Of a stretch of 64,000 nucleotides of DNA, positions 12,101 to 59,241 are shown one piece after another. The notes below the pieces were generated by a model that was given only the letters and a program-made list of their open reading frames with translations, did not search any database and was not told where the DNA came from. Numbering within the stretch: position 1 is the first letter of the stretch; the number at the start of each line of letters is the position of its first letter. The translations under genes and the position numbers were made by a program. The stretch is from Candidatus Anderseniibacteriota bacterium (GTDB taxonomy: Bacteria > Patescibacteriota > Andersenbacteria > UBA10190): assembly GCA_040900375.1 (NCBI GenBank), contig JBBDZC010000018.1:567-64566 (forward strand). The letters run 5' to 3'.

Positions 12101-12157
12101 CCCTAGTAAACGATTATTAGTTACCTGTTGTGGTGAAGATAGGTATACTGGAAAGCT

Positions 12158-29454: not shown

Positions 29455-30175
29455 AGGCTTGGAGTAACTGCGGAAATTTAAGACGCAGGTTTTCCCAAAC
29501 TAATTCTGCCACGTCATCAACGTTCAATAGCTCCTCTCCCTCCACACAGAGGATCCGGAGAAACCGCGCGGGATCTTGCTGGCACAGGAGATCATATTCA
29601 TTGTAGAGTCGTTGTTGAATTTCCAGGTGATCGGTATACTCATCCTTGTCTTGCATCTTTTCTTTTCGTTTCTCTAAAAGACCAACAGAGATCTCGGGCA
29701 GTATATCTAAAAAAAGTGAAATGTGTTCCAAGGGCATCTGTTGCTCTTGATATTCATAGCGGCTAACAGCGGCTTGAATTTTATCCCGAAAGAGTTCGGT
29801 TTCCTGCACGTCCAATCCCTCAATGGTCATAAAGGCAATACTGCTGGCTACGTACCGATCATAGATGACTATTTCTCCTAATTTGAGGGCCTGTAGAACT
29901 TCTGCGCGGTGCTCGGCACGATTGTGTGCAAATAGGCGCATTTTTTCCGGCCACGGTATCGCCTGCCAGCGCCCATCTTTATTCTGGAGCTTTTGCTTTA
30001 ATTTTTGGCCGCTGGAAGTGGTATAATCGGGACTTTCAAAATGATGAACAACGTGCCCCATAAATCGCAGGCGCCGGAGGAGATGCTGAACCTGGGTATG
30101 CTTGCCGGACGAATCAAGGCCATCAAAAGCAATCAGCAGGCCAGTGGGTTTAGGCGCAGGACACATACATTCCAC
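29447..30175 (-). CDS. tmk: Thymidylate (dTMP) kinase
   Basis: LIAFDGLDSSGKHTQ (intact Walker A), IYDRYVASSIAFM (DRY motif), and a LID-like LEKRKEKMQDKDEYTDHLE segment. The true start is probably an internal Met (MCPAPK...). Confidence 0.7.
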   Translation of the reverse strand: MECMCPAPKPTGLLIAFDGLDSSGKHTQVQHLLRRLRFMGHVVHHFESPDYTTSSGQKLKQKLQNKDGRWQAIPWPEKMRLFAHNRAEHRAEVLQALKLGEIVIYDRYVASSIAFMTIEGLDVQETELFRDKIQAAVSRYEYQEQQMPLEHISLFLDILPEISVGLLEKRKEKMQDKDEYTDHLEIQQRLYNEYDLLCQQDPARFLRILCVEGEELLNVDDVAELVWENLRLKFPQLLQAYA

Positions 30176-39448: not shown

Positions 39449-40663
39449 GTGACGCCGTCGAATGGGTCAGCTTACTTAGAAAGCCTCACTAGTCGCCGTA
39501 GTATACTCGGGGGAAGCCTTATATGCTACGACTACATGCTTAAGCTCTTCCATGTTTTTCTGCTCGTGCTGGCGATTGGCCTGGTTGTACAAAGCACACT
39601 TTGGAAAAATATTGATGTTCTAGATGCGGAAGAATGGATGAGTGCTACTGTCTTCCTCTACCAAGGTGACGCGCGGGTCTTTAATAAATTTACTTATGGT
39701 TATCCCGGCACGCCGCTGCTGCTGCTGGCGGGAGCGATCCATGTTGTTTTGGCTATTCCGCTAACGACAAGTTTTACTGGCAGCCTGGCCACCCTTATTT
39801 CCCTTTCGGCCGCGGGGATTGCGGCTACCTGCAAATTGCTGCGGCCGAGGAGTTTATGGTGGATAGCGGCTACGGGTATTATTCTCTGTAACCGTCTCTA
39901 TGCGGCCGTGACTCCCCCCTCGGCAGCGGTCGCTCCCCTGATTGTTCTTATTTTTTTGTTGTCCCTTTATATCTACGAGCAGCGCAGTCAGTCACTGCGC
40001 GTACACATTATGCTCGGGATTAGTTTAGGTGTTGGCGCGGCGCTGCGTCTGGACATTACCGCGGCAGTTGGTTTCTTACTGCTGATTTTTCTGCTGCCAA
40101 GTCTCGGAGGGAAAAGAATCGGGGTGATTGTCAGTACTGCGTTTCTCTCTTTTTTCTTGCTCAATCCCTTCCTGTGGTTTACGCCCCTTGGTCACCTGCA
40201 GGCGATTATCGCTAAAATACACTACCACTGGGCTGATTATGAGACAGAGCGCTTGACGATACCTCTTTTCCTTAACCGGGCAGCTGTTGGCTTACTGGGG
40301 TTCAGCTTGGCTGTAGTACTACTTTTCCTACGGCAACGCCTGCCTCTCCTCATTTCCCGAAAATTCCTCCTCTACACAGTTTTTGTTACTATCAGCATAA
40401 GCATTATCCTATGGCAAGCGAGTTATCAAGTACCGTGGTATTTTTATCCCCTAATTTTTTTCTGGGAAGCCCTTTTGTCTCTTTTTCTTCTCGATTTAGC
40501 CGCCTTAGTTCACTATCCTTTCTTGACTTCCCTGCGAGCCCAGCAATTACTGCGACAATCAGTCCAAATCAGTGTGATCATTCTCCTCGTCGGGGCGCAA
40601 GTTCTCCTGCTGCTTACCGAACATTTTCTTCCCGAGGGTATTTACTTGCTCTCTCTTCCCTAA
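39449..40663 (+). CDS. GT-C fold membrane glycosyltransferase (PMT/ArnT, GT39/GT83-like)
   Basis: 404 aa with about 10 predicted transmembrane helices. First periplasmic-loop motif DAEEWMSATVFLYQGDARVFNKFTYGYPGTPLLLL matches the PMT/ArnT DE..Y...A.....G.......KPPL signature. The true start may be the internal Met (MLKLFHVFLL). Confidence 0.55.
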   Translation: MTPSNGSAYLESLTSRRSILGGSLICYDYMLKLFHVFLLVLAIGLVVQSTLWKNIDVLDAEEWMSATVFLYQGDARVFNKFTYGYPGTPLLLLAGAIHVVLAIPLTTSFTGSLATLISLSAAGIAATCKLLRPRSLWWIAATGIILCNRLYAAVTPPSAAVAPLIVLIFLLSLYIYEQRSQSLRVHIMLGISLGVGAALRLDITAAVGFLLLIFLLPSLGGKRIGVIVSTAFLSFFLLNPFLWFTPLGHLQAIIAKIHYHWADYETERLTIPLFLNRAAVGLLGFSLAVVLLFLRQRLPLLISRKFLLYTVFVTISISIILWQASYQVPWYFYPLIFFWEALLSLFLLDLAALVHYPFLTSLRAQQLLRQSVQISVIILLVGAQVLLLLTEHFLPEGIYLLSLP

Positions 40664-46207: not shown

Positions 46208-46657
46208 TTAGTCGGTGAAACACTCACCGGGCCCTAAGCGCAAGCGCCGTTCTTCCTGAAAGGCGTTACCGTCAGGAAATCGGCCGGTGACCTGTACGCA
46301 AGGGGTAATACCATCACTCGGCAGATACTTTGCTTCTCCTTCGTAGCCCGCAGTGCTTGTATCTGGGACAGACCCATACTCGACTGCTCCTGTAAGCGGG
46401 GTAGATTCTTGGGCAAATAATGATAACTCATACAAGCCTTGTTCTAACCCCGAATTAGCGGCATAGAAAGCGCGCTCGGAAGAGATCGCGTCCGTGGTAG
46501 CGCGAATTTGGCGAGCTAAGATAATGCTAAAAAGGATGGCAGAGGAAACAATAATCGCGAGCATAATGAGCGACATGTAAATCGCAATATCGCCGCGCTG
46601 CTGGTGACCCGCGGGTTGCTTAAGTCTCCGAGTGGTTAGGGAGGATAGCATAGTCAT
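46208..46657 (-). CDS. PilX-like minor pilin / pilus-associated protein
   Basis: 149 aa. N-terminus RGDIAIYMSLIMLAIIVSSAILFSIILA resembles a PilX N-terminal domain. Last gene of the pilus operon. Confidence 0.45.
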   Translation of the reverse strand: MTMLSSLTTRRLKQPAGHQQRGDIAIYMSLIMLAIIVSSAILFSIILARQIRATTDAISSERAFYAANSGLEQGLYELSLFAQESTPLTGAVEYGSVPDTSTAGYEGEAKYLPSDGITPCVQVTGRFPDGNAFQEERRLRLGPGECFTD

Positions 46658-47256
46658 TACGGCGGGCTTAAAAAGGGAATAACTTGCCGCGAAGTAACCG
46701 AGCTCTGGAGGGTGACCGTGTGGTCTGATTTTTTTCGGGAAGTAGCTGCCACACTGATGGTCACAAAGCCTTGGTTGAGAAGCTTGTTGTCGGGGTCTAC
46801 ATTTGCCGCTCGCGCGATAAAGGTGAGCGTATCAATCTGCGTGTCGCGACTCACTAAAGAGTCATACGAGCTGTAGACTATCAGGCTACAGTCTTCTTCA
46901 GGCGGCACGTTTTCCGCCGCCCGTGCGAGCGTGCGTGCGGCACTATCATGGCGATAACTGACGCAGGTACCATTTTGGTTACGGAAAAACAGGAATGAAC
47001 TTGTTCCCGTAAAGGTATTGCCGTAACCGGTACGTACTTCCCGGTTGAGCAACTCTAAAGCAAATCGTAGGTCTGCCTGAATTTTTTGTTCACCAATGTG
47101 ACGGCGCTCGGTAAACACAAATTGGGAGAAAATACCCATAATTATCAACAGCAAGAGCGAAAAGATGCCAATCGCGACAATAATCTCAATAAGTGTATAA
47201 CCACGGCTATGCGCCAGGGGCAAACGAGAGGTAGCGAAGGTATCCATACAGCACAT
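46657..47256 (-). CDS. Prepilin-type minor pilin (PilW-like)
   Basis: Class III signal RGYTLIEIIVAIGIFSLLLLII (G|YTLIE with Glu at +5). The ORF-track start at 47304 overlaps the upstream gene; the internal Met at about 47256 or 47247 is more likely. Confidence 0.6.
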   Translation of the reverse strand: MCCMDTFATSRLPLAHSRGYTLIEIIVAIGIFSLLLLIIMGIFSQFVFTERRHIGEQKIQADLRFALELLNREVRTGYGNTFTGTSSFLFFRNQNGTCVSYRHDSAARTLARAAENVPPEEDCSLIVYSSYDSLVSRDTQIDTLTFIARAANVDPDNKLLNQGFVTISVAATSRKKSDHTVTLQSSVTSRQVIPFLSPP

Positions 47257-47257
47257 A

Positions 47258-47812
47258 TCAAGGCTTATACCAGTTATATAACACTTCTTTGACTTCGGCT
47301 TCACGCGTCAGGCCCCGGCTTTGCCACGTGACTTTCGCACTGATTGTAATCAAGGGGGGCGTACTATTCTGCGCGGTACAATCAACACTGATTAATCGGC
47401 TATAGGGCGTCAGGGTGGCCGCACTCGGATGGTGGGTCCACAGATTGGTATCGGTTATCCGCAACCGCTGCTGGGCTAAGCTCGGGTTAGCGGTGATAAA
47501 CAACGTGGTCACGGGATCATGGTCAATCGTAAATTGGTAGTCGCTACTCGAAGCCTCGTCACAAATATCCTTCGTCCACGCTTCCCCCGAAAACCAATTC
47601 GTATCACGGTAGGCTTGGACTAACTCCAGCCCCTCGCGCGCCAGATTAGCGGCAATAAATCTTTCTTGGGCAATGCCGACAATGTTCTGGGTGCGCGATA
47701 CCAGTTGCACTATCGCGAGGGATCCGCCCACGAGTAAAAAGGTAGCAATTAACACGCCGAGGAGAGACATGCCGCGTTGTAACTTAATTAATTGGCCAGA
47801 CCACGTCAGCAT
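47258..47812 (-). CDS. Minor pilin-like protein (PilV-like, atypical prepilin motif)
   Basis: QRGMSLLGVLIATFLLVGGSLAIVQLV is a hydrophobic N-terminal helix after an RG motif but lacks Glu at +5. 184 aa. Confidence 0.45.
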   Translation of the reverse strand: MLTWSGQLIKLQRGMSLLGVLIATFLLVGGSLAIVQLVSRTQNIVGIAQERFIAANLAREGLELVQAYRDTNWFSGEAWTKDICDEASSSDYQFTIDHDPVTTLFITANPSLAQQRLRITDTNLWTHHPSAATLTPYSRLISVDCTAQNSTPPLITISAKVTWQSRGLTREAEVKEVLYNWYKP

Positions 47813-47813
47813 A

Positions 47814-48338
47814 TTATTCTCGTTCTAATTGACCGTAGGGATACACTGCTAAACGGACGATTGTAGTGCCTAGTTTGAGTTCGAAGCGACCCGGGTTTTT
47901 AACGGCACCATCAACCAATAATTCAATTGTTGGCGGCTGCCCCAAAAATAAGAAGCTTTTGTCTCCCGTCGCGACTACCCCCGCCGGTAACTCTTCCTGT
48001 TGAATAACATAATCAATCCCGGGAGAATACTGCTGGTCGGCAGCATCATCACCAGTATCAGCAAATAACAAAAGCGTCTGACCATCAATAAAGACGCCGA
48101 CGTCGGAGCAGCGGGCGGGTTCCCCTGGATTATCCAGAAGACAGTCTGGATCACGCTCTTCTTGAAGGGCTCGTTTTTGGGCATCACGAAGGGTAAATTC
48201 AATTTTTTGTTGCGCTAATAACAAGGCTTGACTATCGCGGGTTGAAGGAAAAGCCACAGTTAGAATGGTAATCATAATACCAATGATCACGACGGTGACT
48301 ACTACTTCAAGTAAAGTAAATCCTGAACTTGCCGGCAT
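47814..48338 (-). CDS. Prepilin-type pseudopilin (GspH/FimT-like)
   Basis: SGFTLLEVVVTVVIIGIMITIL is a canonical G|FTLLE prepilin cleavage/methylation motif. 174 aa. Confidence 0.7.
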   Translation of the reverse strand: MPASSGFTLLEVVVTVVIIGIMITILTVAFPSTRDSQALLLAQQKIEFTLRDAQKRALQEERDPDCLLDNPGEPARCSDVGVFIDGQTLLLFADTGDDAADQQYSPGIDYVIQQEELPAGVVATGDKSFLFLGQPPTIELLVDGAVKNPGRFELKLGTTIVRLAVYPYGQLERE

Positions 48339-48434: not shown

Positions 48435-49238
48435 TTAGACACCCCACAGGAGCAAAAAAAATCGTGTGGGCAACTGGGGGACAAGTAACACGAGGATAGC
48501 GGCGCCAGCCAAGAATGGCCCAAACGGTATGGCTGTCTTCATTGTACTGTGGCCGCGGGTAAGCAGCGCGATACCCACAAGACCACCGATTGTAAAAGCC
48601 AGAAAAAGAACCATCACGGTGGCCGTGACACCAAACAAAGCGCCGAGGGGAATAAGTAATTTGATGTCCCCCAGGCCTATTCCCTGACCGCGAGTAATGA
48701 GCCAGAGAGAGAAAAGAAAACCCGCGCCAATGACTATCCCGCCGACGATGTCCCACGGCAGGAGCGTTGGTTGGAGTAATATTAGCGTCACACAGAAAAC
48801 ACTTAAGACAATAAGATACTGATCAGGCAAAAGAAATGTCGCACGATCAACAAATGCCAACACCAGTAAACAGGCAACAATGCCGAGAGTGACGAGACTG
48901 GCGACCATGCTGGTAATGGTGCTGGGAAAAGAACTGAAGATGACAACCGCGGCCACCCCCATAGCAAATTCGACGAGCGGATACTGCAAGGATATAGCAG
49001 CACCACAACGCTGGCAGCGGCCTCTAAGTAAGATAAATGAGAGGAGCGGCACCAGCTCCCACCAACGGAGTGTCTGCTGGCACTCTGGACAATATGACCG
49101 CGCGGGCTCGACCGCGCGGGTTGATGAAGCCGCTTTGTGTTTAATGTATCGCAAGATCACGACATTGAGAAAACTGCCAAGCAGCGTCCCGAGAATAAAA
49201 ATAAGCGGGGTGACTACCGTAATTTCCGGCCAGGCCAT
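48435..49238 (-). CDS. pilD: Prepilin peptidase (A24 family)
   Basis: GSFLNVVILRY, the Zn-binding CPECQQTL...WELVPLLSFILLRGRCQRCGAAIS..YPLVE, and a second catalytic Asp region (GLGDIKLL). 267 aa. Confidence 0.9.
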   Translation of the reverse strand: MAWPEITVVTPLIFILGTLLGSFLNVVILRYIKHKAASSTRAVEPARSYCPECQQTLRWWELVPLLSFILLRGRCQRCGAAISLQYPLVEFAMGVAAVVIFSSFPSTITSMVASLVTLGIVACLLVLAFVDRATFLLPDQYLIVLSVFCVTLILLQPTLLPWDIVGGIVIGAGFLFSLWLITRGQGIGLGDIKLLIPLGALFGVTATVMVLFLAFTIGGLVGIALLTRGHSTMKTAIPFGPFLAGAAILVLLVPQLPTRFFLLLWGV

Positions 49239-49245
49239 ACACTAC

Positions 49246-49728
49246 TTAGCTACTGGGGCAGCGCAAGGGGGGACCACTTAGTGTCTGACTCGCACAAACA
49301 GTAGCGACAACCTTAAAGACTCCGGTGGCATCAATACAGTAATGTTTATCCTCTTCGCTCTTGAGCGGCGCGCTGATGCAGTACTCCTTGCGTTGTGATT
49401 CACGAATAGTCACCGCATAGGAAGTCGGGTAGGTTATGGGGTAATTATCGGCGGTCGGCTCTCCCAGCTGCTTATCAATATCGGCGATAATTGTTGCGAC
49501 TTCGGTTTGAATCGAGGCATGCGCGCGCCAATTCAGATAACTTGCTCCCTGACTATCGTATACTTGCTCTGCTAACCAGCGGAGCTGCACCACGTCACTA
49601 CGAATGGCATTATCATGAGCCTTTTCTCGCCCATAGATCACCCCAATCAAAATGAGGATGGAGAGGATCCCAATAATGGCAATAACGATCAAAAGCTCAA
49701 TCAACGTAAAGCCTTTCGTCTCTGGCAT
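49246..49728 (-). CDS. Type IV pilin (paralog 2)
   Basis: [29 protein letters not shown] prepilin leader plus the N-terminal alpha-helix. 160 aa with Cys residues near the C-terminus. Confidence 0.8.
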   Translation of the reverse strand: MPETKGFTLIELLIVIAIIGILSILILIGVIYGREKAHDNAIRSDVVQLRWLAEQVYDSQGASYLNWRAHASIQTEVATIIADIDKQLGEPTADNYPITYPTSYAVTIRESQRKEYCISAPLKSEEDKHYCIDATGVFKVVATVCASQTLSGPPLRCPSS

Positions 49729-49812: not shown

Positions 49813-50262
49813 CTAACAACCAGCACCGGCAGATGTGCAAACTAACGCTGTATTGCTCTGATCAAACGCACCAGTTTCATCAACACAGATAAACGACGTT
49901 GTAAGACTGGCGAGATTTGATTCGATACAGAAGTTAGAAGAATCAGCCTGCACTCCCATTGCACCACCAGCACTGGTAGTATCAGTTTTCAACTGGGGGA
50001 CTGAAGTTTCGATCCCTCCTTTACAGTTCGTAGCATTCGGCGTGCCAAAACACGTGGCAAAGCCAGCATAACTAGCGCTATTAGCATCATAGTAAACTTC
50101 GGCGAGTGTGCGCATCTGACCAACGTTTGACTTGATGCGTGCATCATTAGCCTTTTCCCGCGCGTTGCCTAGCGCCACCAAAACTAACGCGGCCAAGATA
50201 CCAATAATGGCAATGACTACCAGCAATTCGATGAGGGTAAACCCACGCTCATGTTTGTTCAT
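49813..50262 (-). CDS. pilA: Type IV major pilin candidate
   Basis: [41 protein letters not shown] strong RBS (GAGAGGAGGTGAGGG, 9-nt spacer) precedes it and a terminator hairpin follows. 149 aa. Confidence 0.85.
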
Positions 50263-50265
50263 ACA

Positions 50266-50280
50266 CCCTCACCTCCTCTC
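50266..50280 (-). promoter_or_regulatory. Shine-Dalgarno region of pilA
   Basis: The minus strand reads GAGAGGAGGTGAGGGTGT-ATG. Confidence 0.5.
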
Positions 50281-50398
50281 ATGATAGCTGTGCTTGTTTT
50301 CCACATACGACCTTCCCTCAAGTATACATCTAAATAGCAACAAATAAAAAGCGAGGGGGCGACCACGCAAGAGATAGCGAGAAATACTCAATCTTTTT

Positions 50399-51889
50399 TC
50401 ACGAAGGGTGACAGCGCCAAATAACAACTAACGAATCGCGGTCGTAGGGGTTAAAGGGAAAAATCTTGCCCAGGCGGCAATACGTTGCGTAAAAGTTAGC
50501 GTCAAGTAGGCTCGACTGATGCAATTGAAGTTGCTGGGGATTATGGGGATTGAGTCCGCCGAACGTAATGATGGTTTTGACGTGGCCGGCGATAAGTTCG
50601 CTCGTTCTGGTAGGAATATCAAATATTCCAAATTGGAAAAATTTATAGGCGGTCTCCACATAATTTTTGAAAATAGGTCGGCCGGTTTCGAGAGCGATCA
50701 GGGGGGTAACGTAAAACTCGCCGTAGATGGGCTCGGCTTGCTCGGTAACCTGCGCCACATACGCGGTGATGTCCTCTAAATGAGCAATGACGCCCTGCTC
50801 GGCAAAATGGAGGTAATACCACGAAAAAGTAATCATGAGCATTCCTAGAAGGACCGCCGTGACTCCCCTAAATATACGAGGGGTAAGGCGAGCCCGAAGT
50901 AGCTCAAGGGTGGCGCCCCAGCTAAAAGCTAGCCAGGGGGCCGCCATCTTGAGATACAAGAAATAAATATCTTTATACAACAATAAAAAGGTGGTGATGC
51001 TACCAAGTATTAACATACTGATCAGGAGGAGAGATTTGGCGCGAGCTCCGACCGAGGGAGTAGACTGGCGATACCACCAGAACTGCAACAGCCCGAGTAA
51101 TGGTAAGCCGGCAGCAAGCACTATATCGTGCCGAAGAAACATCTGGAAAATGTATTTTTTGGAAAAAACTGCAACCTCGCCAATGTGGCTTAAGAACACA
51201 TTATGCAGGTATAGGTCACCCTGCCACCACCAGAAAAAAATCGTGACCACTCCAAAAATCAGTGTAAAGCCCGCCACGAGACGCCGCGCGAGGGCAGCCT
51301 GCTTGGTGAGGAACAAAAATGCCAGCAAAGGGATAAAGAGCACTACAGCATATACTTTAGTCAGGGCGGCGAGACCGAATAATACGCCACCCAACAGTGG
51401 CCAGCGTTTAAGACTACTGAAAGTCGCGAGCAGACTTAAACTCACCACCAAATGAATATCAGAGACAAAGTCAGTGGTGTGGAGTACTACAAATGAAAAA
51501 AGATACAGCACCGTGGTAAGGAGAGCCACAAGGCGGGAAAAAGCGCCCGCCGCAAGACGATAGATGACCCAGACATCAATAATGGTGAGCCCCACCGGCA
51601 CCAGGTTGAATGATTGCCAACTAAAACCTATAAGACTCCCAATCAGGGCAAAAAAATACGGAATAAACGGCGGTGAAGAGTAAAAGAAATCTCGGTAGGG
51701 AAAACTCCCCTGGGTTATCAAGTAGGCAATGTATATATAAAAATTCCCATCAGAAAAGCGGGGCGCCGAGTTTATAATTTTCGTCACTATGAAAAACACT
51801 ACCGCACCGACAACCACAACGGTGGCACTATGTATGCGAACCGAGGAGAAGCTCGACCACAGGTGTGAGGGGTGACGATCGGCGCGCAT
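50399..51889 (-). CDS. GT-C fold membrane glycosyltransferase (PMT/ArnT-like) embedded in the pilus operon
   Basis: 496 aa with about 12 transmembrane helices. Loop motif DGNFYIYIAYLITQGSFPYRDFFYSSPPF parallels the PMT/ArnT D..Y...A....G......PPL signature. Lies between the pilin genes and pilC. Confidence 0.55.
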   Translation of the reverse strand: MRADRHPSHLWSSFSSVRIHSATVVVVGAVVFFIVTKIINSAPRFSDGNFYIYIAYLITQGSFPYRDFFYSSPPFIPYFFALIGSLIGFSWQSFNLVPVGLTIIDVWVIYRLAAGAFSRLVALLTTVLYLFSFVVLHTTDFVSDIHLVVSLSLLATFSSLKRWPLLGGVLFGLAALTKVYAVVLFIPLLAFLFLTKQAALARRLVAGFTLIFGVVTIFFWWWQGDLYLHNVFLSHIGEVAVFSKKYIFQMFLRHDIVLAAGLPLLGLLQFWWYRQSTPSVGARAKSLLLISMLILGSITTFLLLYKDIYFLYLKMAAPWLAFSWGATLELLRARLTPRIFRGVTAVLLGMLMITFSWYYLHFAEQGVIAHLEDITAYVAQVTEQAEPIYGEFYVTPLIALETGRPIFKNYVETAYKFFQFGIFDIPTRTSELIAGHVKTIITFGGLNPHNPQQLQLHQSSLLDANFYATYCRLGKIFPFNPYDRDSLVVIWRCHPS

Positions 51890-51922
51890 TCAAGAAAAGC
51901 CGGGTCAGTCTAGTGGTATCGC

Positions 51923-53128
51923 TTAGAGGACTAAGACCAAGTTATAAATCGGTAAGAGCACCGCGGCGACCACAATGCCGACGCCAATGCCTAAGATAAT
52001 CACTAGCAGCGGCTCCAAAAAGACAGTCACTGATTCGAGCATTTCTTCAACATCGCGGCGGAAAAAATAGTTTGCTTCTTTAAAAGCTTTTTCAATTTCA
52101 CCGCTACGCTCACCAATACTAACCATGGTAGTGAGCATCGGTGGTATATAGGGCTCATGTTCCCAGACGGAAGAAATACTGGCACCATCTTTAATGGCCA
52201 CGACCGTATCATCAAGAATGTTTTGATAGACCCGATTACCGAGTGATTCCCGGGCTAATTTAAGCGATTCTAGGATAGGCACGTCGCTGCTAAACAGGGT
52301 GTGGAGAATCGACGTCAGCCGGGCCAAATACACTTTAGTAAAAAGTTTGCTCAAGAGCGGGAGCCGCAAGACCCAGGTGCTGATATTATATTGACCCTCG
52401 GGTGTTTTAAGATACGAGCGCAGGAGAAAACCTAAAGCCACCGCGATGAGACCAAAAATATACCAGTAGCCCTGAATGGCATTAGTAATAATAATCAATA
52501 TCCGCGTCGGCAATGGCAGTTGCACTTGGGCTTCTTCAAATAAAGTAACTAGTTGGGGAACGACAAAAATAAACATGAGTAGCACGACAAAGGCGACAGC
52601 GGTGAGGACAAAGGCGGGATACATCAGGGCCGAACGGACTTTGCGCACAAAGAAGTAGTTCTGCTCTAAGTAGTCAGCCATAATTCCCAGCGCGTCGGAG
52701 AGACGACCACTGGCTTCGCCGGTGCGCACTACCCCAATAAAGAAGAGAGAAAAGGCTTCGGGATGTTTGGTCATGGCAATCGAGAGCGCCTCCCCACCTT
52801 CAATATCATATGACATCTCTTGGAGCAGACGATGTAAAGCTGGTTTTTCTACTTGTTTGGTTAAGGCTTGTAAGGCTTGAAGAACCGGCACACCAGCTCG
52901 GATCATGGAGGAGATTTGGCGGCTAAAGAGAATAAGGTCACGGGTGTTAACTTTACCGCCGAGAACGGTCCGATGCAGCAGTGACGTATCATTAAAAATT
53001 TGTAAATCAATCGGCACCAGGCCGTGACTCTGCAGTAACACGGTGGCCCGTTCTTCGGTTTGGGCGCGGAGCTTGCCTTTAACTTCTTTGCCGTCCGCCG
53101 TGCGTGCGCGATAGGAATACTGGGGCAT
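51923..53128 (-). CDS. pilC: Type IV pilus assembly platform protein (GspF/PilC family)
   Basis: 401 aa with two T2SS-F repeats and three transmembrane segments. The N-terminus MPQYSYRARTADGKEVKGKL is typical of PilC. Confidence 0.9.
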   Translation of the reverse strand: MPQYSYRARTADGKEVKGKLRAQTEERATVLLQSHGLVPIDLQIFNDTSLLHRTVLGGKVNTRDLILFSRQISSMIRAGVPVLQALQALTKQVEKPALHRLLQEMSYDIEGGEALSIAMTKHPEAFSLFFIGVVRTGEASGRLSDALGIMADYLEQNYFFVRKVRSALMYPAFVLTAVAFVVLLMFIFVVPQLVTLFEEAQVQLPLPTRILIIITNAIQGYWYIFGLIAVALGFLLRSYLKTPEGQYNISTWVLRLPLLSKLFTKVYLARLTSILHTLFSSDVPILESLKLARESLGNRVYQNILDDTVVAIKDGASISSVWEHEPYIPPMLTTMVSIGERSGEIEKAFKEANYFFRRDVEEMLESVTVFLEPLLVIILGIGVGIVVAAVLLPIYNLVLVL

Positions 53129-53221: not shown

Positions 53222-54274
53222 TTAGTGTGTTAAAGTTTTGGCAGTGGAGAAATAAGGGCGAGCATCTTGGAGACGGACCGCGCCGGCATCAACTAGGGCT
53301 TGCAAACTGGCATCGAGAGTCTGCATGCCCACATCAGAGCTCGTTTGAATAATACCCAGAATCTGGTGGACATTACCTTCACGAATAACATTCCGGATCG
53401 CCGTTGTGGCAATCATAATTTCCACCGCGGGAATTCGGCCGCCCTCTAGCCAGGGTAACAAGCGCAAAGAAACAACGCCGGATAAAGTCGTCGAAAGCTG
53501 CGAGCGAATTTGGTGCTGCTGGACCGGCGGAAAAGAATCAATTAAACGCTCAATCGTTTGCCCCGCATCATTCGTGTGCAGGGTAGCAAAGACTAAGTGT
53601 CCTGTTTCCGCGACTGTGATCGCCGTTTGCATCGATTCTAAATCGCGGAGCTCGCCAATCATAATCACGTTAGGATCCTGGCGCAGCGTGGCGCGAATGG
53701 CCGTGGCAAAAGAAGCAGCATCGTGCCCGACTTCGCGTTGGTCAATGATGGATTGCTTGTCCACAAACTGATACTCAATGGGATCCTCTACGGTAATAAT
53801 GTGCTCGCGCCGGCTTTCGTTGATGTAATCGATGAGCGAGGCCATAGTGGTTGATTTACCGTGACCGGCCGGACCGACCACTAACACGAAACCCTGCTTA
53901 AGCTCGGCAAATTGAGTTATCTGGGGCGGCAAGTGCAGTTCCTCCACCGTACGGATGTCTTTGGGAATGAGCCGCAGGGCAGCTGTAATTTCGCCTAAGT
54001 GATAAAAGACATTCACGCGAAAACGGGTACCATCCTGTAAACCATAGGAAAAATCACTCTGTTTTTCTTCGGCAAGTTCTTTAAGCCGCCGCTCTTTGTC
54101 ATTCTTCAGCAGCTCATCTATCATCTGCTGGGCTTCGGCGGAAGCGAGAATCTCGGTGCCGATTGGTTGTAATTGGCCGTCAATTCGAAAAAAAGGAGTT
54201 CGTCCCGCGCTAATGTGGACATCGGACACACCAGCATCTTTTGACTCACGCAACAGGTCATCAATAATACGCAT
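53222..54274 (-). CDS. pilT: Pilus retraction ATPase
   Basis: Walker A GPAGHGKST, HIITVEDPIEY, and the PilT-type AIRATLRQDPNVIMIGELRD...HLVFATLHT. 350 aa. Confidence 0.9.
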   Translation of the reverse strand: MRIIDDLLRESKDAGVSDVHISAGRTPFFRIDGQLQPIGTEILASAEAQQMIDELLKNDKERRLKELAEEKQSDFSYGLQDGTRFRVNVFYHLGEITAALRLIPKDIRTVEELHLPPQITQFAELKQGFVLVVGPAGHGKSTTMASLIDYINESRREHIITVEDPIEYQFVDKQSIIDQREVGHDAASFATAIRATLRQDPNVIMIGELRDLESMQTAITVAETGHLVFATLHTNDAGQTIERLIDSFPPVQQHQIRSQLSTTLSGVVSLRLLPWLEGGRIPAVEIMIATTAIRNVIREGNVHQILGIIQTSSDVGMQTLDASLQALVDAGAVRLQDARPYFSTAKTLTH

Positions 54275-54310
54275 GGCTGTTTTTTAAAGTTAAGAAAGTA
54301 CGTTAACGGG

Positions 54311-54706
54311 CTACGCGGTTGCTTTTTTGTTTTCCAAAAGCCTGGTGATCTTTTCCACGACTTCTGTAGGCGTGTAGTGAGCTTTGATGATGTAATCATT
54401 GGCACCAAGTTTTATACCACGCTCCACATCGGGTTTTTGTCCTAAATTAGTCAAGAGAATAATAGGTAACTCCTGCGTGCGCTTATCGCGCCGCAGCGCC
54501 TCCAGAATTTCAAAACCATCCATTTTTGGTAAGACAATATCAAGCAGCAGTAGGTTAGGTAGAGGATCTTTTTGGAGTCGTTGCCACGCTGTTTCTCCAT
54601 CCTCGGCAATTTCCACCTGAAAACCCAGGCTCGCTAATTTAGTGTGGTACATGCCTGAAATAAAGGAATCATCTTCGACTAGTAAGATAGATTTTGCGTC
54701 ATTCAT
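54311..54706 (-). CDS. Single-domain response regulator (CheY-like receiver)
   Basis: ILLVEDDSFISGMY...LLLLDIVLPKMDGFEILEALR...IILLTNLG...GANDYIIKAHYTP, with phospho-acceptor Asp in LLDIVLP. 131 aa. Confidence 0.85.
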   Translation of the reverse strand: MNDAKSILLVEDDSFISGMYHTKLASLGFQVEIAEDGETAWQRLQKDPLPNLLLLDIVLPKMDGFEILEALRRDKRTQELPIILLTNLGQKPDVERGIKLGANDYIIKAHYTPTEVVEKITRLLENKKATA

Positions 54707-54718
54707 ACAATTATAGAT

Positions 54719-56467
54719 TTAAGTGCCTAGCTGCTCTTCACTAGTTACGCGCATCACATCTTCGTATTGAACCTCGCCCACGAGAGCCTTGAGGAGCCCA
54801 TCTTCACGCATCGTCAGGTTACCTTCCTTCTGTGATACATCTCGTAGTGTATCATATTCTCCCGAGTCATTAATAGCGTTGCGAAAAGCCCGACTAACCG
54901 GAACGGTCTCAAAGATGGCAACACGACCGACTGAGCCGGCCTCGTGACAGGCGGGACAACCAGGACTTTCATAGAGCACTTCGGGCCGCCGTTGATTATT
55001 GTCATTTTTATACTCCGCCGGTACGGCGGCGAGCGCCTGGGTGATCTTTTCCCGCAAACCAGCAGGCATCTTCACTGCCCGCTTGCACTCTTGGCATAGT
55101 TTCGCGACTAGCCGTTGGGCCACGAGCAGCCGAAGCGTAGCCGTGAGCAGAAATGGGTCAATGCCCATATCAACCAAGCGCGGCACTGTCCCGACAGCAT
55201 CATTGGTATGAATTGTGGATAAAACTAAGTGCCCGGTTAACGAGGCATGGACTGACAGCGCCGCGGTATCGCGGTCACGTATTTCCCCTACCATTAAGAT
55301 GTCAGGGTCTTGCCGCAGCAAATTCCGTAAACCAGAAACAAAAGTTAGTCCGATATCGGGTGCAATCTGGGTTTGGTTGATGCCGGGAATATCGTATTCC
55401 ACTGGATCTTCGAGAGTCACAATATTTACATCCTGTGAATTCAGTTGCGTCAACGCCGTAAAGAGCGTGGTTGATTTGCCTGAACCAGTGGGCCCAGAGA
55501 TGAGAATAATACCGTGGGGAGCACGCAAATGCTCTTGCAAAATTTTCTCTTGGGTACCGCGCAAGCCAAGTTGATTAAAGGATGGTGCGCCCTGCGACTT
55601 ATCAAGGATACGGAGTGCTGCTTTTTCACCGTAGGTTGTGGGCATTGTGGAAACACGAAAATCAAAGGAGCGGCCTTCAATGGCGATAGAAAAGCGGCCA
55701 TCCTGCGGCAGGCGCGATTCGTCAATTTTGAGGCTCGATAAGATTTTAATGCGGGAAATGATGGCAGCGTGAATTTTCCGCGGCAGGATTAAAGAGTTAT
55801 GAAGATCACCGTCAATACGGTAGCGAATTCTGACATCTTTTTCTGTTGGTTCGACATGGATATCAGAGGCATGACCTTCAATCGCGTGGCGAATAATCAC
55901 AGCGACGACTTTCGTGATTGGCGCTTCTTCGATAAAACGAGTAATATCTTGGGTTTCTTTGCCGCTGACATCAGTTTGAGCAAGTTCTCTCGTAAAATCT
56001 TTAAGCGCGCCGCCAATCTCGGCTTGGATTTCCGCGGCTCCGCCTAAGGCTTTATTAATCCCCTCTTGCGAGGCTAAGTAAATTTCTGGGTGCAGGCCTT
56101 TCTTTTTGGCAATAAACTTCACCGCTTCTAAAGCCTGGAAATCATCGGGGGATTCCATGGCGATAAGTAATTTAGTCTCCTTCTCGTCAAAAGCAAAAAA
56201 ACGGTAGGTGGCGGCGGCCTGGCGAGAAATAGTCGCCATGGCTTGTTCGTTAATTCTCGTGGATGTCAAATCAATGTATGGTATCCGCAACATTTCGGCG
56301 CGGACTTGGGCTAGCTGTTCGGGATACACCATTTTTTCTTTCAGGAGCACTTCTTCCATGGCCAAACTTTCTTTAGCCATAAGATTGTGAATACGCTCCA
56401 ACTGCGTAGGCTTAATTAAGCCCCGCTCAAGCAGTTTTTGTTCTAGTTGCAATTGGTTATCTGCCAT
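54719..56467 (-). CDS. pilB: Pilus assembly (extension) ATPase, GspE/PilB family
   Basis: N-terminal T2SSE_N domain, Walker A GPTGSGKST, Asp box, tetra-Cys motif CQECK...CPACHEAG. 582 aa. Confidence 0.9.
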   Translation of the reverse strand: MADNQLQLEQKLLERGLIKPTQLERIHNLMAKESLAMEEVLLKEKMVYPEQLAQVRAEMLRIPYIDLTSTRINEQAMATISRQAAATYRFFAFDEKETKLLIAMESPDDFQALEAVKFIAKKKGLHPEIYLASQEGINKALGGAAEIQAEIGGALKDFTRELAQTDVSGKETQDITRFIEEAPITKVVAVIIRHAIEGHASDIHVEPTEKDVRIRYRIDGDLHNSLILPRKIHAAIISRIKILSSLKIDESRLPQDGRFSIAIEGRSFDFRVSTMPTTYGEKAALRILDKSQGAPSFNQLGLRGTQEKILQEHLRAPHGIILISGPTGSGKSTTLFTALTQLNSQDVNIVTLEDPVEYDIPGINQTQIAPDIGLTFVSGLRNLLRQDPDILMVGEIRDRDTAALSVHASLTGHLVLSTIHTNDAVGTVPRLVDMGIDPFLLTATLRLLVAQRLVAKLCQECKRAVKMPAGLREKITQALAAVPAEYKNDNNQRRPEVLYESPGCPACHEAGSVGRVAIFETVPVSRAFRNAINDSGEYDTLRDVSQKEGNLTMREDGLLKALVGEVQYEDVMRVTSEEQLGT

Positions 56468-56508
56468 GATTGAGCCTGTGCTTGGATTACTGGACCAGCC
56501 ACCAGCAC

Positions 56509-56790
56509 TTACAAGAAGGGGTTGGCTTTACCGGTAGCCGCAGGCGGTTGAACTGGCAGTGCACCGCTGATAATTAACTGTTTATCAAGAGAAAGATATG
56601 AGGCTGTCTGCAAAAACTGAAGATTAAAACCTGACGTGCTGTCTTCGCTTAGCTCACCAGGTAATGGGCTGGATGGGCCAGTTGGTTGGCTTTGTGAGGG
56701 TAATAAGGAAAGGACAAGGGCGCTGACTAGCGCGGCCGCAATTAAGACAGCCGATAAAATAATTATGACTCGTGTCTGTTTATTGGCCAT
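56509..56790 (-). CDS. Hypothetical pilus-operon membrane-anchored protein
   Basis: Likely start at the internal MANKQTRVIIILSAVLIAAALVSALVLSLL, giving one transmembrane segment then a Pro/Ser-rich segment. The ORF-track start at 56862 would overlap the pilO-like gene by 83 nt. Confidence 0.35.
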   Translation of the reverse strand: MANKQTRVIIILSAVLIAAALVSALVLSLLPSQSQPTGPSSPLPGELSEDSTSGFNLQFLQTASYLSLDKQLIISGALPVQPPAATGKANPFL

Positions 56791-57379
56791 GATTTTCTCC
56801 CCGATGCTTATAAAAGTTAATATCCATGCGCGCGCCGAGTTGATCGAGCGTCGTGGGATCACGTTGCAAGCGCAGGGAAACTACATCCATTAAACGCGCC
56901 GAGCGCTCAAGCTGTTCCAAAAAGAGCCGCAGCTGTTGGTAGGAACCGCGAGCCTCGATATTCACAGCGAGAGGCTCAATGGTAGCAGGCACATTCACTA
57001 ATTCTCCCCGAGCCCGTAAGGCTTGGACTTTACTTTTCTCACCCTCACTATTATTAGCAAGCCCGATAATGGTCACGCCAGTAGTTTCCGCAGTGCGATG
57101 GAAAATCCGTGTCGCATCATCGAGAGCATCATCAGTCGGCAAAACTACGGCTAATTGTTGTTCGTGCTGCTGCTGACGAGTGAGTACCTCTTTCTTTTGA
57201 TCAATCGTTAAGAGAAACTGTTGTTTTTCCACAATGGCTGCCTCCACGCCCGCCACGGCAGCTTGCTGTTCCCGCAAACTTTTCAACATTGGCTGAAAAA
57301 TTGCAAAAATGGCGATAATAGCCACGAGAATTATGCCGGTCAAGAGTAAGTAGGGTAAGTTCAGTGATTGTTTAGCCAT
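56780..57379 (-). CDS. pilO: PilO-like pilus assembly protein
   Basis: 199 aa: N-terminal transmembrane segment (LLLTGIILVAIIAIFAIF), a coiled-coil, then a periplasmic domain. Position after the pilN-like gene fits pilO. Confidence 0.55.
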   Translation of the reverse strand: MAKQSLNLPYLLLTGIILVAIIAIFAIFQPMLKSLREQQAAVAGVEAAIVEKQQFLLTIDQKKEVLTRQQQHEQQLAVVLPTDDALDDATRIFHRTAETTGVTIIGLANNSEGEKSKVQALRARGELVNVPATIEPLAVNIEARGSYQQLRLFLEQLERSARLMDVVSLRLQRDPTTLDQLGARMDINFYKHRGENHGQ

Positions 57380-57382
57380 AAC

Positions 57383-57997
57383 CTAGAGACTATTCGGGGG
57401 CAGATTCGGGCGACTACCTTGTAAGGCTTCCGGTGGAAAGTTGAGCGTAGCTTGAAAACTGTAGTTGATTGTCGTCACAGTTCCGTCAGGTGATGCAGTT
57501 TCATTACGGGCAATAGAAGCTAGATCAACAGCTGTAAACATTGTTTTTCGTGTAGGACTTGTGGTCAGACTAGCCAGAGTTTGCGCCACTTCATCAATAT
57601 TAGGGGTATTGCCGCTGACGATCAGTTGGCCTTCCCGAGTCGTCATTTCTAGATCAATCAATACCGTGGGCGCGGGTAAGAGTCGTTCAATTTCTTGCAA
57701 GAGAGGCAGCGGGCTCACGTGCGTGGCCAGCAGTTCCTCAAGAGCATCAATTCGTTCTTCAAACAACGTGATGCGAGTGACATCATCACCAGCTTCGATG
57801 ATTCTTCGCTCTAACCCCTGTAACTGGGCCTGGGATCGAGTTAAGGCTCTAGCAGCACTGGACTGGAGTCCCGCGAGGATACCCCACATGACTACCAGCA
57901 GCACGACAATGCCAATGGATAAACTAAACAATGCTCGCCGGCGCCGGCGAATGGACGCTAGGTAGGCTGTGCCTGGAGCTAAATTAATCGTTGCCAT
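57383..57997 (-). CDS. pilN: PilN-like pilus assembly protein
   Basis: 204 aa: short basic cytoplasmic N-terminus (INLAPG..RRRRRALF), a single transmembrane segment, and a periplasmic domain. Immediately downstream of pilM. Confidence 0.6.
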   Translation of the reverse strand: MATINLAPGTAYLASIRRRRRALFSLSIGIVVLLVVMWGILAGLQSSAARALTRSQAQLQGLERRIIEAGDDVTRITLFEERIDALEELLATHVSPLPLLQEIERLLPAPTVLIDLEMTTREGQLIVSGNTPNIDEVAQTLASLTTSPTRKTMFTAVDLASIARNETASPDGTVTTINYSFQATLNFPPEALQGSRPNLPPNSL

Positions 57998-58060
57998 ACC
58001 ATATTGTTACAGGGCATCATTAAACTCGACTAGAAGCCGAAGGAAAAAATAATAGACTCA

Positions 58061-59164
58061 TTATACTTTACTAAATCCGCGCTGCGCAAGGCCGACCGCC
58101 ACGGCGTACATGGGACCGAGTTCATGCAAACGGGCATCGAGAGTTTGCGGATATGCTAAACCTCGCCAAGGATTGCCAACCGTGACACTATGGCCAATAA
58201 ACTCGGACCACACGGCAGTTAGTCCGCGCAAGTTAGCGCCGCCGCCAATTAAAACTGTCTTCGTCAGCGCGCGGCCAGCTTTACGTTCATACAACTGCAG
58301 CAGATGTTGGGCTTGATCCAAGATTTTCTGCACCACTTGCATGGCAGCAATCGTTAATTCAGGAGGGGCTTGATTGATTAAGCCAAATTCCACCTTTTTC
58401 TGTTCCGCGGCCGCGGGGGAAAGAGCTAGAGCTTGAGCAATGTTGGCCGAGATGGCACGACCGCCATGCTCAATCGTGTGAGAGACGCGTGGCGTTCCGC
58501 CGTCAATAATGTGGAAGGTGGTAACACGATCGCCGATATCCACAATCATGGCGGAGTCATATTGATTGGTCAGCAAGGATCGTACTAAGGGAAATGTTTC
58601 GACCTCGAGCGCGAAGAGTTCAAGACGCAACAGTTCCATAAGTTTGGTGTAGCGTGTCACCAGGTCCTTCGGCGCCGCGGTAACAAAAACGGGCACGGTT
58701 TGCAGGTTCGACGACGGTGACACAGGCGTAGCGGGCGGGGCGGTAGTCGGTTTTTCATTTTCCATGTGCGGCGGTTGACCAACGCGACTCCACCCTAACA
58801 CCATCTCATCTAAATTAGCCGGGACGACATCACGCGCAGCAAAGTGCACGGCCTTATCCATATCAGGCTCGGGAATATCAGGCAGCGTCAAGACCGTCGA
58901 GAAGACCACGCTTGAAGGCAATGCCGCAATTACCTGGTCCGTTGACACGCTGGCACTATCAAGCATGCGCGATACCACTGCCGCCACGGCGCGGATCTCA
59001 TCTTCGTCATCACCAACAACGTCAGTTAATAAATTAGAGAGATTGGCCTGGGCATACGTGACCACTTCTAAGCGCCGGCGACGATCAATGAGTTCCACTA
59101 CCTTTAAAGAAGAGGTGCCAATATCCAAACCAATATAGGCCGACGAAGAACTGAATAATGCCAT
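58061..59164 (-). CDS. pilM: Actin-like ATPase PilM
   Basis: AYIGLDIGTSSLKVVEL (actin/FtsA-fold phosphate-1 motif) with a DxG and GGGA region. The ORF-track start at 59203 may be upstream of the real start (MALFSSSSAYIGLDIG at 59164). Confidence 0.85.
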   Translation of the reverse strand: MALFSSSSAYIGLDIGTSSLKVVELIDRRRRLEVVTYAQANLSNLLTDVVGDDEDEIRAVAAVVSRMLDSASVSTDQVIAALPSSVVFSTVLTLPDIPEPDMDKAVHFAARDVVPANLDEMVLGWSRVGQPPHMENEKPTTAPPATPVSPSSNLQTVPVFVTAAPKDLVTRYTKLMELLRLELFALEVETFPLVRSLLTNQYDSAMIVDIGDRVTTFHIIDGGTPRVSHTIEHGGRAISANIAQALALSPAAAEQKKVEFGLINQAPPELTIAAMQVVQKILDQAQHLLQLYERKAGRALTKTVLIGGGANLRGLTAVWSEFIGHSVTVGNPWRGLAYPQTLDARLHELGPMYAVAVGLAQRGFSKV

Positions 59165-59241
59165 AGGAAAACCTTGCCAATGAAAGTACTCCGAGTATAC
59201 CATGAAGCTATAAGTTAATTTGATATTATTGCCCTACGTAT

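Follow-up and report, generated by a model that had tools for sequence, protein, structure and literature searches.

Why should a glycosyltransferase gene lie in the middle of a type IV pilus operon? The question is raised by a 64,000-nucleotide stretch of the genome of Candidatus Anderseniibacteriota bacterium, an ultra-small organism (assembly GCA_040900375.1, contig JBBDZC010000018.1, positions 567 to 64,566; hereafter the window), in which a gene at 50399-51889 on the minus strand, encoding a membrane protein of the GT-C glycosyltransferase fold, separates pilC from the pilin genes. Among the surface machineries of the candidate phyla radiation (CPR), or Patescibacteria, type IV pili are conserved best, and a part in host-cell attachment has been ascribed to them. 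For the CPR, glycosylation of pilins has so far been only a computational prediction (PMC11623550), and our literature search found no paper joining Patescibacteria to this enzyme class. An earlier note on this DNA proposed, from adjacency to the pilins, that the enzyme glycosylates them. Our analysis finds the enzyme class sound and the position suggestive, but comparison with relatives tilts the evidence away from a dedicated pilin role. The explanation we prefer, and to which we give an even chance, is that an active polyprenyl-phosphate-sugar-dependent GT-C enzyme came to rest at an intergenic site of the pilus operon that tolerates insertion, its family normally serving to glycosylate the envelope or surface in general.

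The extent and placement of the gene are exactly as the earlier note described them: a 496-residue open reading frame (ORF) in the ORF list of the window, initiated by ATG and flanked only by minus-strand genes, inside a complete locus of the order pilM-N-O-x-B-RR-T-C / pilin-pilin-pilD / four minor pilins. Its start codon lies 33 nt (51890-51922) from the stop of pilC, which encodes the platform protein and adjoins it upstream (51923-53128, minus strand; Pfam T2SSF, E 1.2e-51), and 136 nt separate its TGA from the ATG of pilin 1. How much of this arrangement is shared by relatives? Seven loci were compared, with PilC proteins P0154 (78% identical), P0156 (76%), P0159 (76%), P0168 (67%), P0173 (63%), P0191 (62%) and P0221 (59%). 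All have the gene order htpX, lemA, pilM, N, O, small ORF, pilB, receiver, pilT, pilC, pilin, pilin, pilD, four minor pilins, ligA, gatC, gatA, and none of the seven carries a GT-C gene at the pilC/pilin junction. Because seven relatives of the same locus order lack it, the gene in the window is a lineage-specific insertion. The earlier note had named absence from otherwise identical pilus loci of relatives as an outcome that would tell against a pilin role, and absence is what the comparison returned.

The insertion point falls between the pilC stop and the conserved upstream element that belongs to the pilin itself (50263-50345, minus strand, delimited by alignment with the pilC-pilin intergenic regions of loci L013, L014 and L015), which stays intact downstream of the GT-C gene. 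In the window this element comprises a -10-like TATACT at 50326-50321, a leader AAGGTCGTATGTGGAAAACAA at 50314-50294 and a Shine-Dalgarno sequence GGAGGTGA at 50276-50269, and would act as the promoter of the pilin. A full sigma-70 promoter was considered and the -35 call dropped, since the TTGTTG/TATACT spacer is only 11 nt. The conservation of this region is an observation in its own right: upstream of the major pilin it is strongly conserved (window 50263-50345 on the minus strand, L013 9207-9291, L014 9207-9370, L015 2804-2962), with the leader AAGGTCGTATGTGGAAAACAA and the Shine-Dalgarno sequence GAGAGGAGGTGAGGGT, though the proteins are only ~60-80% identical, and it may represent a conserved promoter together with a regulatory element in the 5' untranslated region.

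A generic promoter and terminator scan yielded nothing above shuffle expectation, and no stable hairpin or terminator was found between the GT-C stop and the pilin element (z = 0.28). Inspection of the 33-nt spacer revealed neither a Shine-Dalgarno-like sequence nor a terminator, whereas pilC and pilin 1 do have Shine-Dalgarno sequences. Given a spacer devoid of both signals, expression of the gene is likely weak and dependent on transcripts that run on from the operon of the pilus machinery.

Does the junction hold other genes in relatives? In loci L016 and L017, whose PilC is 67% identical to that of the window, the same site is occupied by an unrelated gene for a 123-residue Avd-like protein (L016 9229-9600, L017 2635-3006), and the junction therefore tolerates insertions. 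That protein matches Pfam 23S_rRNA_IVP/bAvd and the PHROG entry 'Avd protein of DGR' (E 1.2e-9); a diversity-generating retroelement (DGR) at this gene in L016 was rejected, as neither a reverse transcriptase nor a pair of template and variable repeats occurs within the 17-kb locus. Scattered between the genes of the pilus locus, L016 also contains AT-rich repeats (AATTTCCAATT-type), each 60-70 nt long, that fall into two families, the first at 520-579, 1268-1327, 10951-11010 and 16368-16427, the second at 1358-1426, 11057-11125, 13145-13213 and 16451-16519; none was seen in the window.

As to the age of the insertion, no direct or inverted repeats flank the GT-C gene and no phage or PHROG relatives of it were found, while its G+C content, third-position G+C content (GC3) and codon usage all lie within the host range. 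Recent horizontal transfer was rejected on these three grounds, and the host-like composition argues for long residence in the genome.

The most obvious alternative to a mere landing site, and a serious contender if somewhat short of an even chance, takes its precedent from Pseudomonas aeruginosa, where the GT-C arabinosyltransferase TfpW is encoded beside pilA and O-glycosylates pilin on Ser/Thr in only some strains (10.1101/2020.04.19.049825; PMC11841053). The window gene would then encode a dedicated pilin O-glycosyltransferase, a functional analogue of TfpW acquired as a variable accessory gene. Co-expressed with the machinery, it would transfer sugar from a polyprenyl-phosphate donor onto Ser/Thr residues of pilin 1 and/or pilin 2, such as those of a TDTTSAGG patch or a C-terminal Ser, on the outside of the membrane before assembly, and the altered pilus surface might serve, for example, host recognition or phage evasion. 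Such a role is favoured by the placement of the gene, with pilC before it and the pilins after it on one strand and no terminator between, and by Ser/Thr-rich patches and a C-terminal Ser in the pilins. Pilin 1, the probable major pilin (149 residues, 49813-50262, minus strand; N_methyl E 9.5e-11, NCBIfam prepilin domain), has six cysteines and a TDTTSAGG patch; pilin 2 (160 residues, 49246-49728, minus strand; N_methyl E 1.8e-07, orthologues in all relatives) ends in ...RCPSS.

Do these pilins bear any mark of the enzyme? The Ser/Thr-rich patches that the earlier note expected are indeed present, and identical ones occur in relatives without the gene. The two closest relatives, both of which lack the GT-C gene, have pilins 77-81% identical to pilin 1. 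Ser+Thr make up 17.4% of pilin 1 and 18.0-18.7% of these pilins, which also contain the TD(T/S)T(S/A)A patch and, at the C-terminus, the disulfide loop. The C-terminal Ser of pilin 2 is likewise present in most relatives. Comparison with these relatives revealed no pilin feature correlating with presence of the enzyme, and co-adaptation by a gain of Ser/Thr in the genome that bears it was rejected, there being no such gain. The absence of the gene from all seven syntenic relatives, in spite of this similarity of pilin 1 and its patches, counts against a dedicated pilin enzyme, as does the presence of an unrelated gene at the junction in another relative. Absence from relatives nevertheless does not amount to disproof of pilin glycosylation, because TfpW and TfpO, another pilin-modifying enzyme, are strain-variable accessory genes too.

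Further evidence on the usual role of the enzyme comes from its family. A profile search run exhaustively over 1.84 billion cluster representatives recovered 1,862 relatives at E ≤ 1e-3, 591 at E ≤ 1e-10 and 173 at E ≤ 1e-30 (50%-identity clusters). Nearly all are stand-alone enzymes of 450-500 residues (~470) that align end to end. Among 85 members searched with Pfam, 46 match PMT_2, 12 GT87 and 2 PIG-M. A genome scan found the family in metagenome-assembled genomes (MAGs) labelled Andersenbacteria, Saccharibacteria, Gracilibacteria, Peribacteraceae and unclassified Patescibacteria, together with one 'Oligoflexaceae' MAG; the family is essentially confined to Patescibacteria and extends throughout them.

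Thirty contigs with family members (L001-L012, L018-L032, L036-L038), representing ~26 distinct loci and in many cases including 10 kb either side, were screened for pilus genes in two ways: all Pil proteins of the window served as tblastn queries, and prepilin leaders were sought with a regular expression, which as a positive control recovered four prepilins in the window. No Pil homologue or prepilin was detected in 29 of the 30 contigs. The sole positive, L030, means that a pilin neighbours the enzyme in one of ~26 distinct loci, and family-wide co-occurrence with pilus genes was rejected on that count. The family member of L030, a metagenome contig of 244 kb, is 29% identical and convergent with an orphan prepilin gene at 11349-11867 (region 9887-12633).

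What surrounds family members instead is a set of housekeeping genes. In loci L002-L004, L018-L020, L022 and L023, ndk is followed by the GT-C gene and then by pcm, tgt or dinB; the order hisS-ilvD-(small ORF)-GT-C characterizes a Gracilibacteria/Peribacteria group that includes L006, L007 and L009; ilvD, an ogt-like gene and the GT-C gene follow one another in L024, L026 and L028, where the small ORF is the one encoding the ogt-like DNA-binding protein; and in L037 the gene stands between prmC and prfA. Pfam searches of the neighbours returned only such genes (ndk, tgt, dinB, pcm, ilvD, hisS, ogt-like, prmC/prfA). The usual context of the family is thus housekeeping and conserved within clades, and it is not the pilus locus. 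The same searches found no GT2 lipid-sugar synthase, GtrA flippase or wall gene beside family members among the loci examined, and no donor-synthesis or flippase gene occurs anywhere in the window.

Two features of individual loci may be recorded here. In L005 (8541-9929), from the 'Oligoflexaceae'-labelled MAG, the start of the GT-C homologue is overlapped by 4 nt by the gene for a 462-residue protein, the C-terminal half of which is a short-chain dehydrogenase (adh_short_C2), the N-terminal ~225 residues being unannotated. DprE2 is a short-chain dehydrogenase/reductase, and the 462-residue protein could by analogy be a candidate sugar-modifying partner of the homologue. A 1051-residue 'fusion' ORF in L029 was set aside, having no Pfam match.

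How secure is the enzyme class? Residues 72-222 of the protein match Pfam PMT_2 (PF13231) with E 9.6e-11 at 42.6 bits, the gathering score being 26.1, and the match spans the entire 160-position model. GT87 is second and sub-threshold (16.2 bits, cut-off 25). PMT (PF02366) and PMT_4TMC are unmatched at E ≤ 0.1, as is every NCBIfam model. A single-sequence search of the PDB gives a weak match to glycosylphosphatidylinositol (GPI) mannosyltransferase I (E 3e-4), which becomes E 2e-16 and the only match when the 85-sequence family profile is used, covering the N-terminal ~240 residues. At NCBI the protein is named 'glycosyltransferase family 39 protein', and the database copy is a singleton on a 77-kb contig from a Candidatus Andersenbacteria MAG. 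The AlphaFold2 model, built on the family alignment, has a predicted local distance difference test score of 92.9 and a predicted template-modelling score of 0.92. Foldseek at E ≤ 0.1 finds GT-C enzymes exclusively, with ArnT best (5f15/5ezm; E 3e-7, template-modelling scores 0.63/0.58), followed by Pmt4, STT3, ALG9, DPY19, PglB, AglB, GPI mannosyltransferase I, AftA, AftD, PimE and EmbB. Since sequence, profile and predicted fold agree, the assignment to the GT-C glycosyltransferases is correct at the level of modelled fold and of clan.

Hydrophobicity and the model concur in ~11 transmembrane helices, close to the roughly 12 first estimated, followed by a ~135-residue C-terminal alpha/beta domain with beta-strands at 439-446, 471-480 and 483-493. 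The periplasmic-loop motif reported earlier is recognizable as the acidic R44-F-S-D47-G of loop 1. In the 85 family sequences D47 and D67 are at least 90% conserved, D47 being nearly invariant and aligning with the first Asp of the luminal T-D-I-D (DxD) motif of GPI mannosyltransferase I. The full set of near-invariant positions comprises D47, Y51, G61, Y65, D67, P74, T138, D140, G168, Y180, D307, Y309, Y312, G390, P396, D412, N414, C471 and C493, and the window protein, whose frame is full length, retains every one of them, including D47, D67, D140, D307 and the C471/C493 pair. The model suggests 11 transmembrane helices with the N-terminus inside and the C-terminus outside, so that the conserved polar residues and the disulfide-capable C-terminal domain would face outward.

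From these elements a mode of action can be sketched. The gene encodes an intact and probably active GT-C glycosyltransferase with a putatively cytoplasmic N-terminus ahead of the ~11 helices, a topology suggested by fold and conserved residues. D47, Y51, Y65 and D67 of loop 1, D140, K178 and Y180, H235 with R253-H254-D255 of the long loop 4, and D307, Y309 and Y312 would all face outward, and the C-terminal alpha/beta domain with its invariant Cys471-Cys493 pair would lie outside too. A polyprenyl-phosphate-sugar, the donor class suggested by the fold, would be made elsewhere in the genome, and a single sugar would be transferred to an acceptor on the outer face of the membrane, with D47 as putative catalytic base or metal ligand. 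The usual acceptor of the family would most likely be a general cell-envelope target (surface or secreted proteins, wall or lipid-linked glycopolymer) and not pilin specifically. The present copy is inserted between the pilC stop and the pilin upstream element and would be expressed weakly by read-through, presumably co-transcribed with the machinery genes, its adjacency to the pilins being largely a matter of landing site.

A very improbable alternative is that the gene is a passenger, inactive or poorly expressed, or that its product has a non-catalytic role in pilus biogenesis despite the GT-C fold. The missing Shine-Dalgarno sequence, the unique insertion and the long branch of the protein in the family tree would suit a passenger; the full-length frame, the retained near-invariant residues, the confident model and the host-like composition all argue otherwise.

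To which known enzymes is the protein closest? The likeness to PMT and ArnT asserted in the earlier note extends to fold and clan, as PMT_2, the family profile, AlphaFold and Foldseek indicate, and stops short of orthology to either. ArnT (GT83, the undecaprenyl-phosphate-4-amino-4-deoxy-L-arabinose:lipid A transferase) is the best full-length fold match, shares PMT_2 and has a similar size and a transmembrane part with a C-terminal periplasmic domain. It differs in that identity in the structural alignment is 14-16% and no curated, phmmer or profile match of the window protein to ArnT was obtained. ArnT orthology was ruled out accordingly, there being no NCBIfam match, no match to ArnT by PDB sequence or profile search, and structural likeness only. 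Production of lipid A is not known from the Andersenbacteria, the lineage of the host. With the GT39 Pmt enzymes (fungal Pmt1/2/4, actinobacterial Pmt) the protein shares the GT-C fold, an acidic residue in loop 1 and the dolichyl- or polyprenyl-phosphate-mannose class of donor, and Pmt4 is the third-best fold match. Unlike them, it has no PF02366 or PMT_4TMC match, no MIR domain and no 'DE' dipeptide anywhere in its sequence; the Foldseek alignment with Pmt1/2 is limited to ~260-300 columns. A GT39 protein O-mannosyltransferase was ruled out, PMT_2 and the sub-threshold GT87 being the sole Pfam matches at E ≤ 0.1 and the loop-1 DE motif missing.

GPI mannosyltransferase I (PIG-M/Gpi14, GT50), the sole family found by sequence in the PDB, shares the alignment of D47 with its DxD motif, and PimE belongs to GT87, the second Pfam match. 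Both act on glycolipids and lack the ~135-residue C-terminal extracytoplasmic domain. Membership in GT50 PIG-M or GT87 PimE was ruled out by this extra domain, the sub-threshold GT87 score, the 2 PIG-M matches among 85 members and the confinement of the PDB profile match to the N-terminal ~240 residues. Within the GT-C clan, the window protein takes a marginal place next to PMT_2, ArnT, GT87 and PIG-M, in a distinct uncharacterised family.

These affinities nonetheless raise an alternative that is narrower than general envelope glycosylation and that we consider unlikely, namely an enzyme specific for a glycolipid or glycopolymer, in the manner of ArnT, PimE/PIG-M or YfhO/GtrC, with no protein acceptor. 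It would act as the extracytoplasmic third component of a system of GT2 synthase, flippase and GT-C enzyme, decorating a wall polymer or membrane glycolipid. Such three-component systems are widespread, the best profile match in the PDB and the best fold match are both lipid-acceptor enzymes, and GT87, of PimE type, is the second most frequent Pfam match in the family. Set against this are the lack of an adjacent GT2 synthase or GtrA-type flippase in the loci examined, and the nearly equal similarity, in fold and profile, of the protein-acting Pmt4, STT3 and PglB. We also know of no such polymers in Andersenbacteria, which we count against this alternative.

TfpO/PilO and PglL, pilin-modifying membrane enzymes like the one proposed, belong to a different superfamily (Wzy_C/O-antigen-ligase-like); they show no Pfam or fold match to the window protein and use undecaprenyl-pyrophosphate-oligosaccharide donors. 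The likeness lies in function and in tfpO being a variable accessory gene beside pilA (PMC11841053). In regarding such enzymes, and not those of GT39/83 type, as the usual agents of pilin glycosylation, the earlier note overlooked TfpW, the GT-C enzyme beside pilA.

TfpW has 646 residues, a C-terminal tetratricopeptide repeat (TPR) domain, a DDx motif in loop 1 and Yx6PFx7P in loop 4 (10.1101/2020.04.19.049825), and our comparison with it rests on this published description, not on sequence alignment. Both are polytopic GT-C enzymes, lineage-restricted and encoded next to a major pilin (group IV in the case of TfpW), with ~11 transmembrane helices, an acidic motif in periplasmic loop 1 and a periplasmic C-terminal domain; TfpW uses a polyprenyl-phosphate-sugar donor, the same class as the fold suggests for the window enzyme. 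The differences are more specific. The window protein has 496 residues, an alpha/beta, disulfide-capable C-terminal domain whose modelled beta-strands do not fit an all-helical TPR, and SDG in place of DDx; regular expressions for DDx and Yx6PFx7P find neither. Its gene lies upstream of pilin 1 and of the pilin leader, whereas tfpW is downstream of pilA; and TfpW is tied to a specific pilin allele and a D-arabinofuranose donor cluster, whereas the window gene has neither allele linkage nor donor genes. Membership in the TfpW family was rejected on size, DDx, Pro motif, TPR, downstream position and allele linkage. Should the window enzyme act in the manner of TfpW, it would be a separate recruitment to that role and no member of the TfpW family.

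For a dedicated pilin enzyme, the precedent of GT-C and other enzymes beside pilA in some strains is favourable, as is the independent combination of a pilin and a nucleotidyltransferase in L030. Unfavourable to it are the close linkage in P. aeruginosa of each pilin glycosyltransferase to its own pilin allele (PMC11841053), the single pilin neighbour among ~26 family loci, the location upstream of the pilin leader and outside a pilin-accessory cassette, the missing Shine-Dalgarno sequence and the absence of sugar-donor genes from the 64-kb window. Comparative evidence lends no support to a pilin-glycosylating role deduced from adjacency.

Where could this copy have come from? The ndk-linked clade (L001-L004) is 71-82% identical internally and 38-40% identical to the window protein, which stands alone on a long branch of the family tree. 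On these figures, the idea that an ndk-linked orthologue had simply moved was rejected. The nearest neighbour in the distance tree is P0012, of 524 residues and 36% identity (L036 3652-5226). In L036 the arrangement is ligA-gatC-gatA-GT-C followed by a convergent gpmI, and the P0012 gene overlaps the end of gatA by 23 nt. The same ligA-gatC-gatA block comes immediately after the pilus genes in the window and in its relatives. No GT-C gene separates gatA from gpmI in the window (42277/42280) or in L039, its closest relative, where the two genes abut. The window/P0012 sub-clade is therefore positionally variable, occupying different junctions of one syntenic block. Relocation of a copy linked to gatA and gpmI, such as that of P0012, is a possible origin that fits by position, though the two enzymes are only 36% identical when the flanking proteins of L036 are 64-74% identical to those of the window.

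Several of these observations weigh against an incidental landing. The gap in identity between enzyme and flanks is one: divergence beyond that of the flanks is less to be expected of a core envelope enzyme than of a rapidly evolving gene for surface variation, and together with the positional variability of the sub-clade it fits an accessory surface-variation gene. The orphan prepilin of L030 is co-oriented with a sugar-phosphate nucleotidyltransferase gene (NTP_transferase, 11929-12633). In the window, the gene sits intact, on the same strand and 33 nt after pilC, inside an otherwise rigidly conserved pilus operon, and such placement would be expected of an accessory gene recruited to modify pilin; strain-variable presence would likewise match the behaviour of the known pilin glycosyltransferases TfpO and TfpW. 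Finally, the 'general envelope target' is a default acceptor for the family and not a demonstration.

These points leave room for a bolder conjecture, which we hold only tentatively: that a positionally mobile and fast-evolving sub-clade within a GT-C family specific to Patescibacteria was captured by the pilus operon and provides the first pilin-glycosylation enzyme of the CPR, decorating the pilins of the episymbiont-host contact. If this is true, pilus surface chemistry would vary between near-identical lineages, in a way analogous to but independent of the TfpW and TfpO of Pseudomonas.

Automated annotation had already assigned the enzyme class, and pilin-acting GT-C enzymes were known. 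The novelty is modest and lies in the definition of a GT-C family, widespread in Patescibacteria and uncharacterised, and in one lineage with a divergent copy inside its pilus operon. A glycosyltransferase embedded in this way would be a concrete candidate for testing pilin glycosylation in the CPR, and as envelope biosynthesis in Patescibacteria is minimal, the target of the family would inform on their surface.

The earlier note had also invoked a second paralog, at 39449-40663 on the plus strand, as a sign of more general envelope glycosylation. This ORF encodes an orphan polytopic membrane protein of 404 residues with ~12 helices and no soluble domain, directly upstream of gpmI. BLASTP against the GT-C protein gives E = 3.2, hhalign against the 85-sequence profile a probability of 18%, and neither Pfam nor NCBIfam a match at E ≤ 0.1; among 5.8 billion clusters it matches only itself. 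NCBI lists a 375-residue version as 'hypothetical protein WEA04_04400', and the single-sequence model (predicted local distance difference test score 53.6) is unusable. Its loop 1, LDAEEW...QG, resembles a GT-C loop 1 by eye only. With none of BLASTP, Pfam, NCBIfam, hhalign and the homologue search in support, we rejected it as a demonstrable paralog, and the argument built on it is unsupported.

The remaining pilus genes of the window, all on the minus strand, conform to the syntenic layout. The upstream machinery (53222-59203) consists of pilT (53222-54274), a receiver-domain gene, pilB (54719-56467), a small ORF, pilO, pilN and pilM (58061-59203), assigned from the ORFs and the precomputed Pfam matches of the relatives (T2SSE, Response_reg, MshEN, PilO, PilM_2). 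The stand-alone receiver-domain gene between pilB and pilT (54311-54706) and the small unannotated ORF between pilO and pilB (56509-56862; 89-117 residues) hold the same positions in all seven related loci. Downstream of the pilins lie the prepilin peptidase gene pilD (48435-49238; A24_N_bact E 1.3e-28, Peptidase_A24 E 2.2e-13) and four minor-pilin-like genes spanning 46208-48338 (47814-48338, 47258-47812, 46657-47304 and 46208-46657), two recognized by N_methyl, with the prepilin-leader expression and an order kept in relatives as further evidence; ligA comes after them, at the downstream end of the locus.

Elsewhere in the window, the plus strand at 2702-12100 encodes a 3132-residue protein with NHL repeats, a lactonase-like beta-propeller, fn3 and Big_13 domains and a C-terminal SH3_3, probably a huge surface protein; the G+C content of this ORF (0.568, GC3 0.625) is above that of the rest of the window. 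Between dnaE and thrS, a 379-residue ORF on the minus strand (15683-16822) has a weak, sub-threshold match to Baseplate_J (E 3e-4, 20.6 bits against a cut-off of 21.1). A cluster of genes of the deoxythymidine monophosphate pathway (serine hydroxymethyltransferase, dCTP deaminase, dUTPase) contains two tandem thymidylate-kinase-like genes with an 8-nt overlap (28786-29454 and 29447-30175, minus strand) and an unusually long ThyX of 571 residues with two Thy1 stretches (24111-25826, plus strand).

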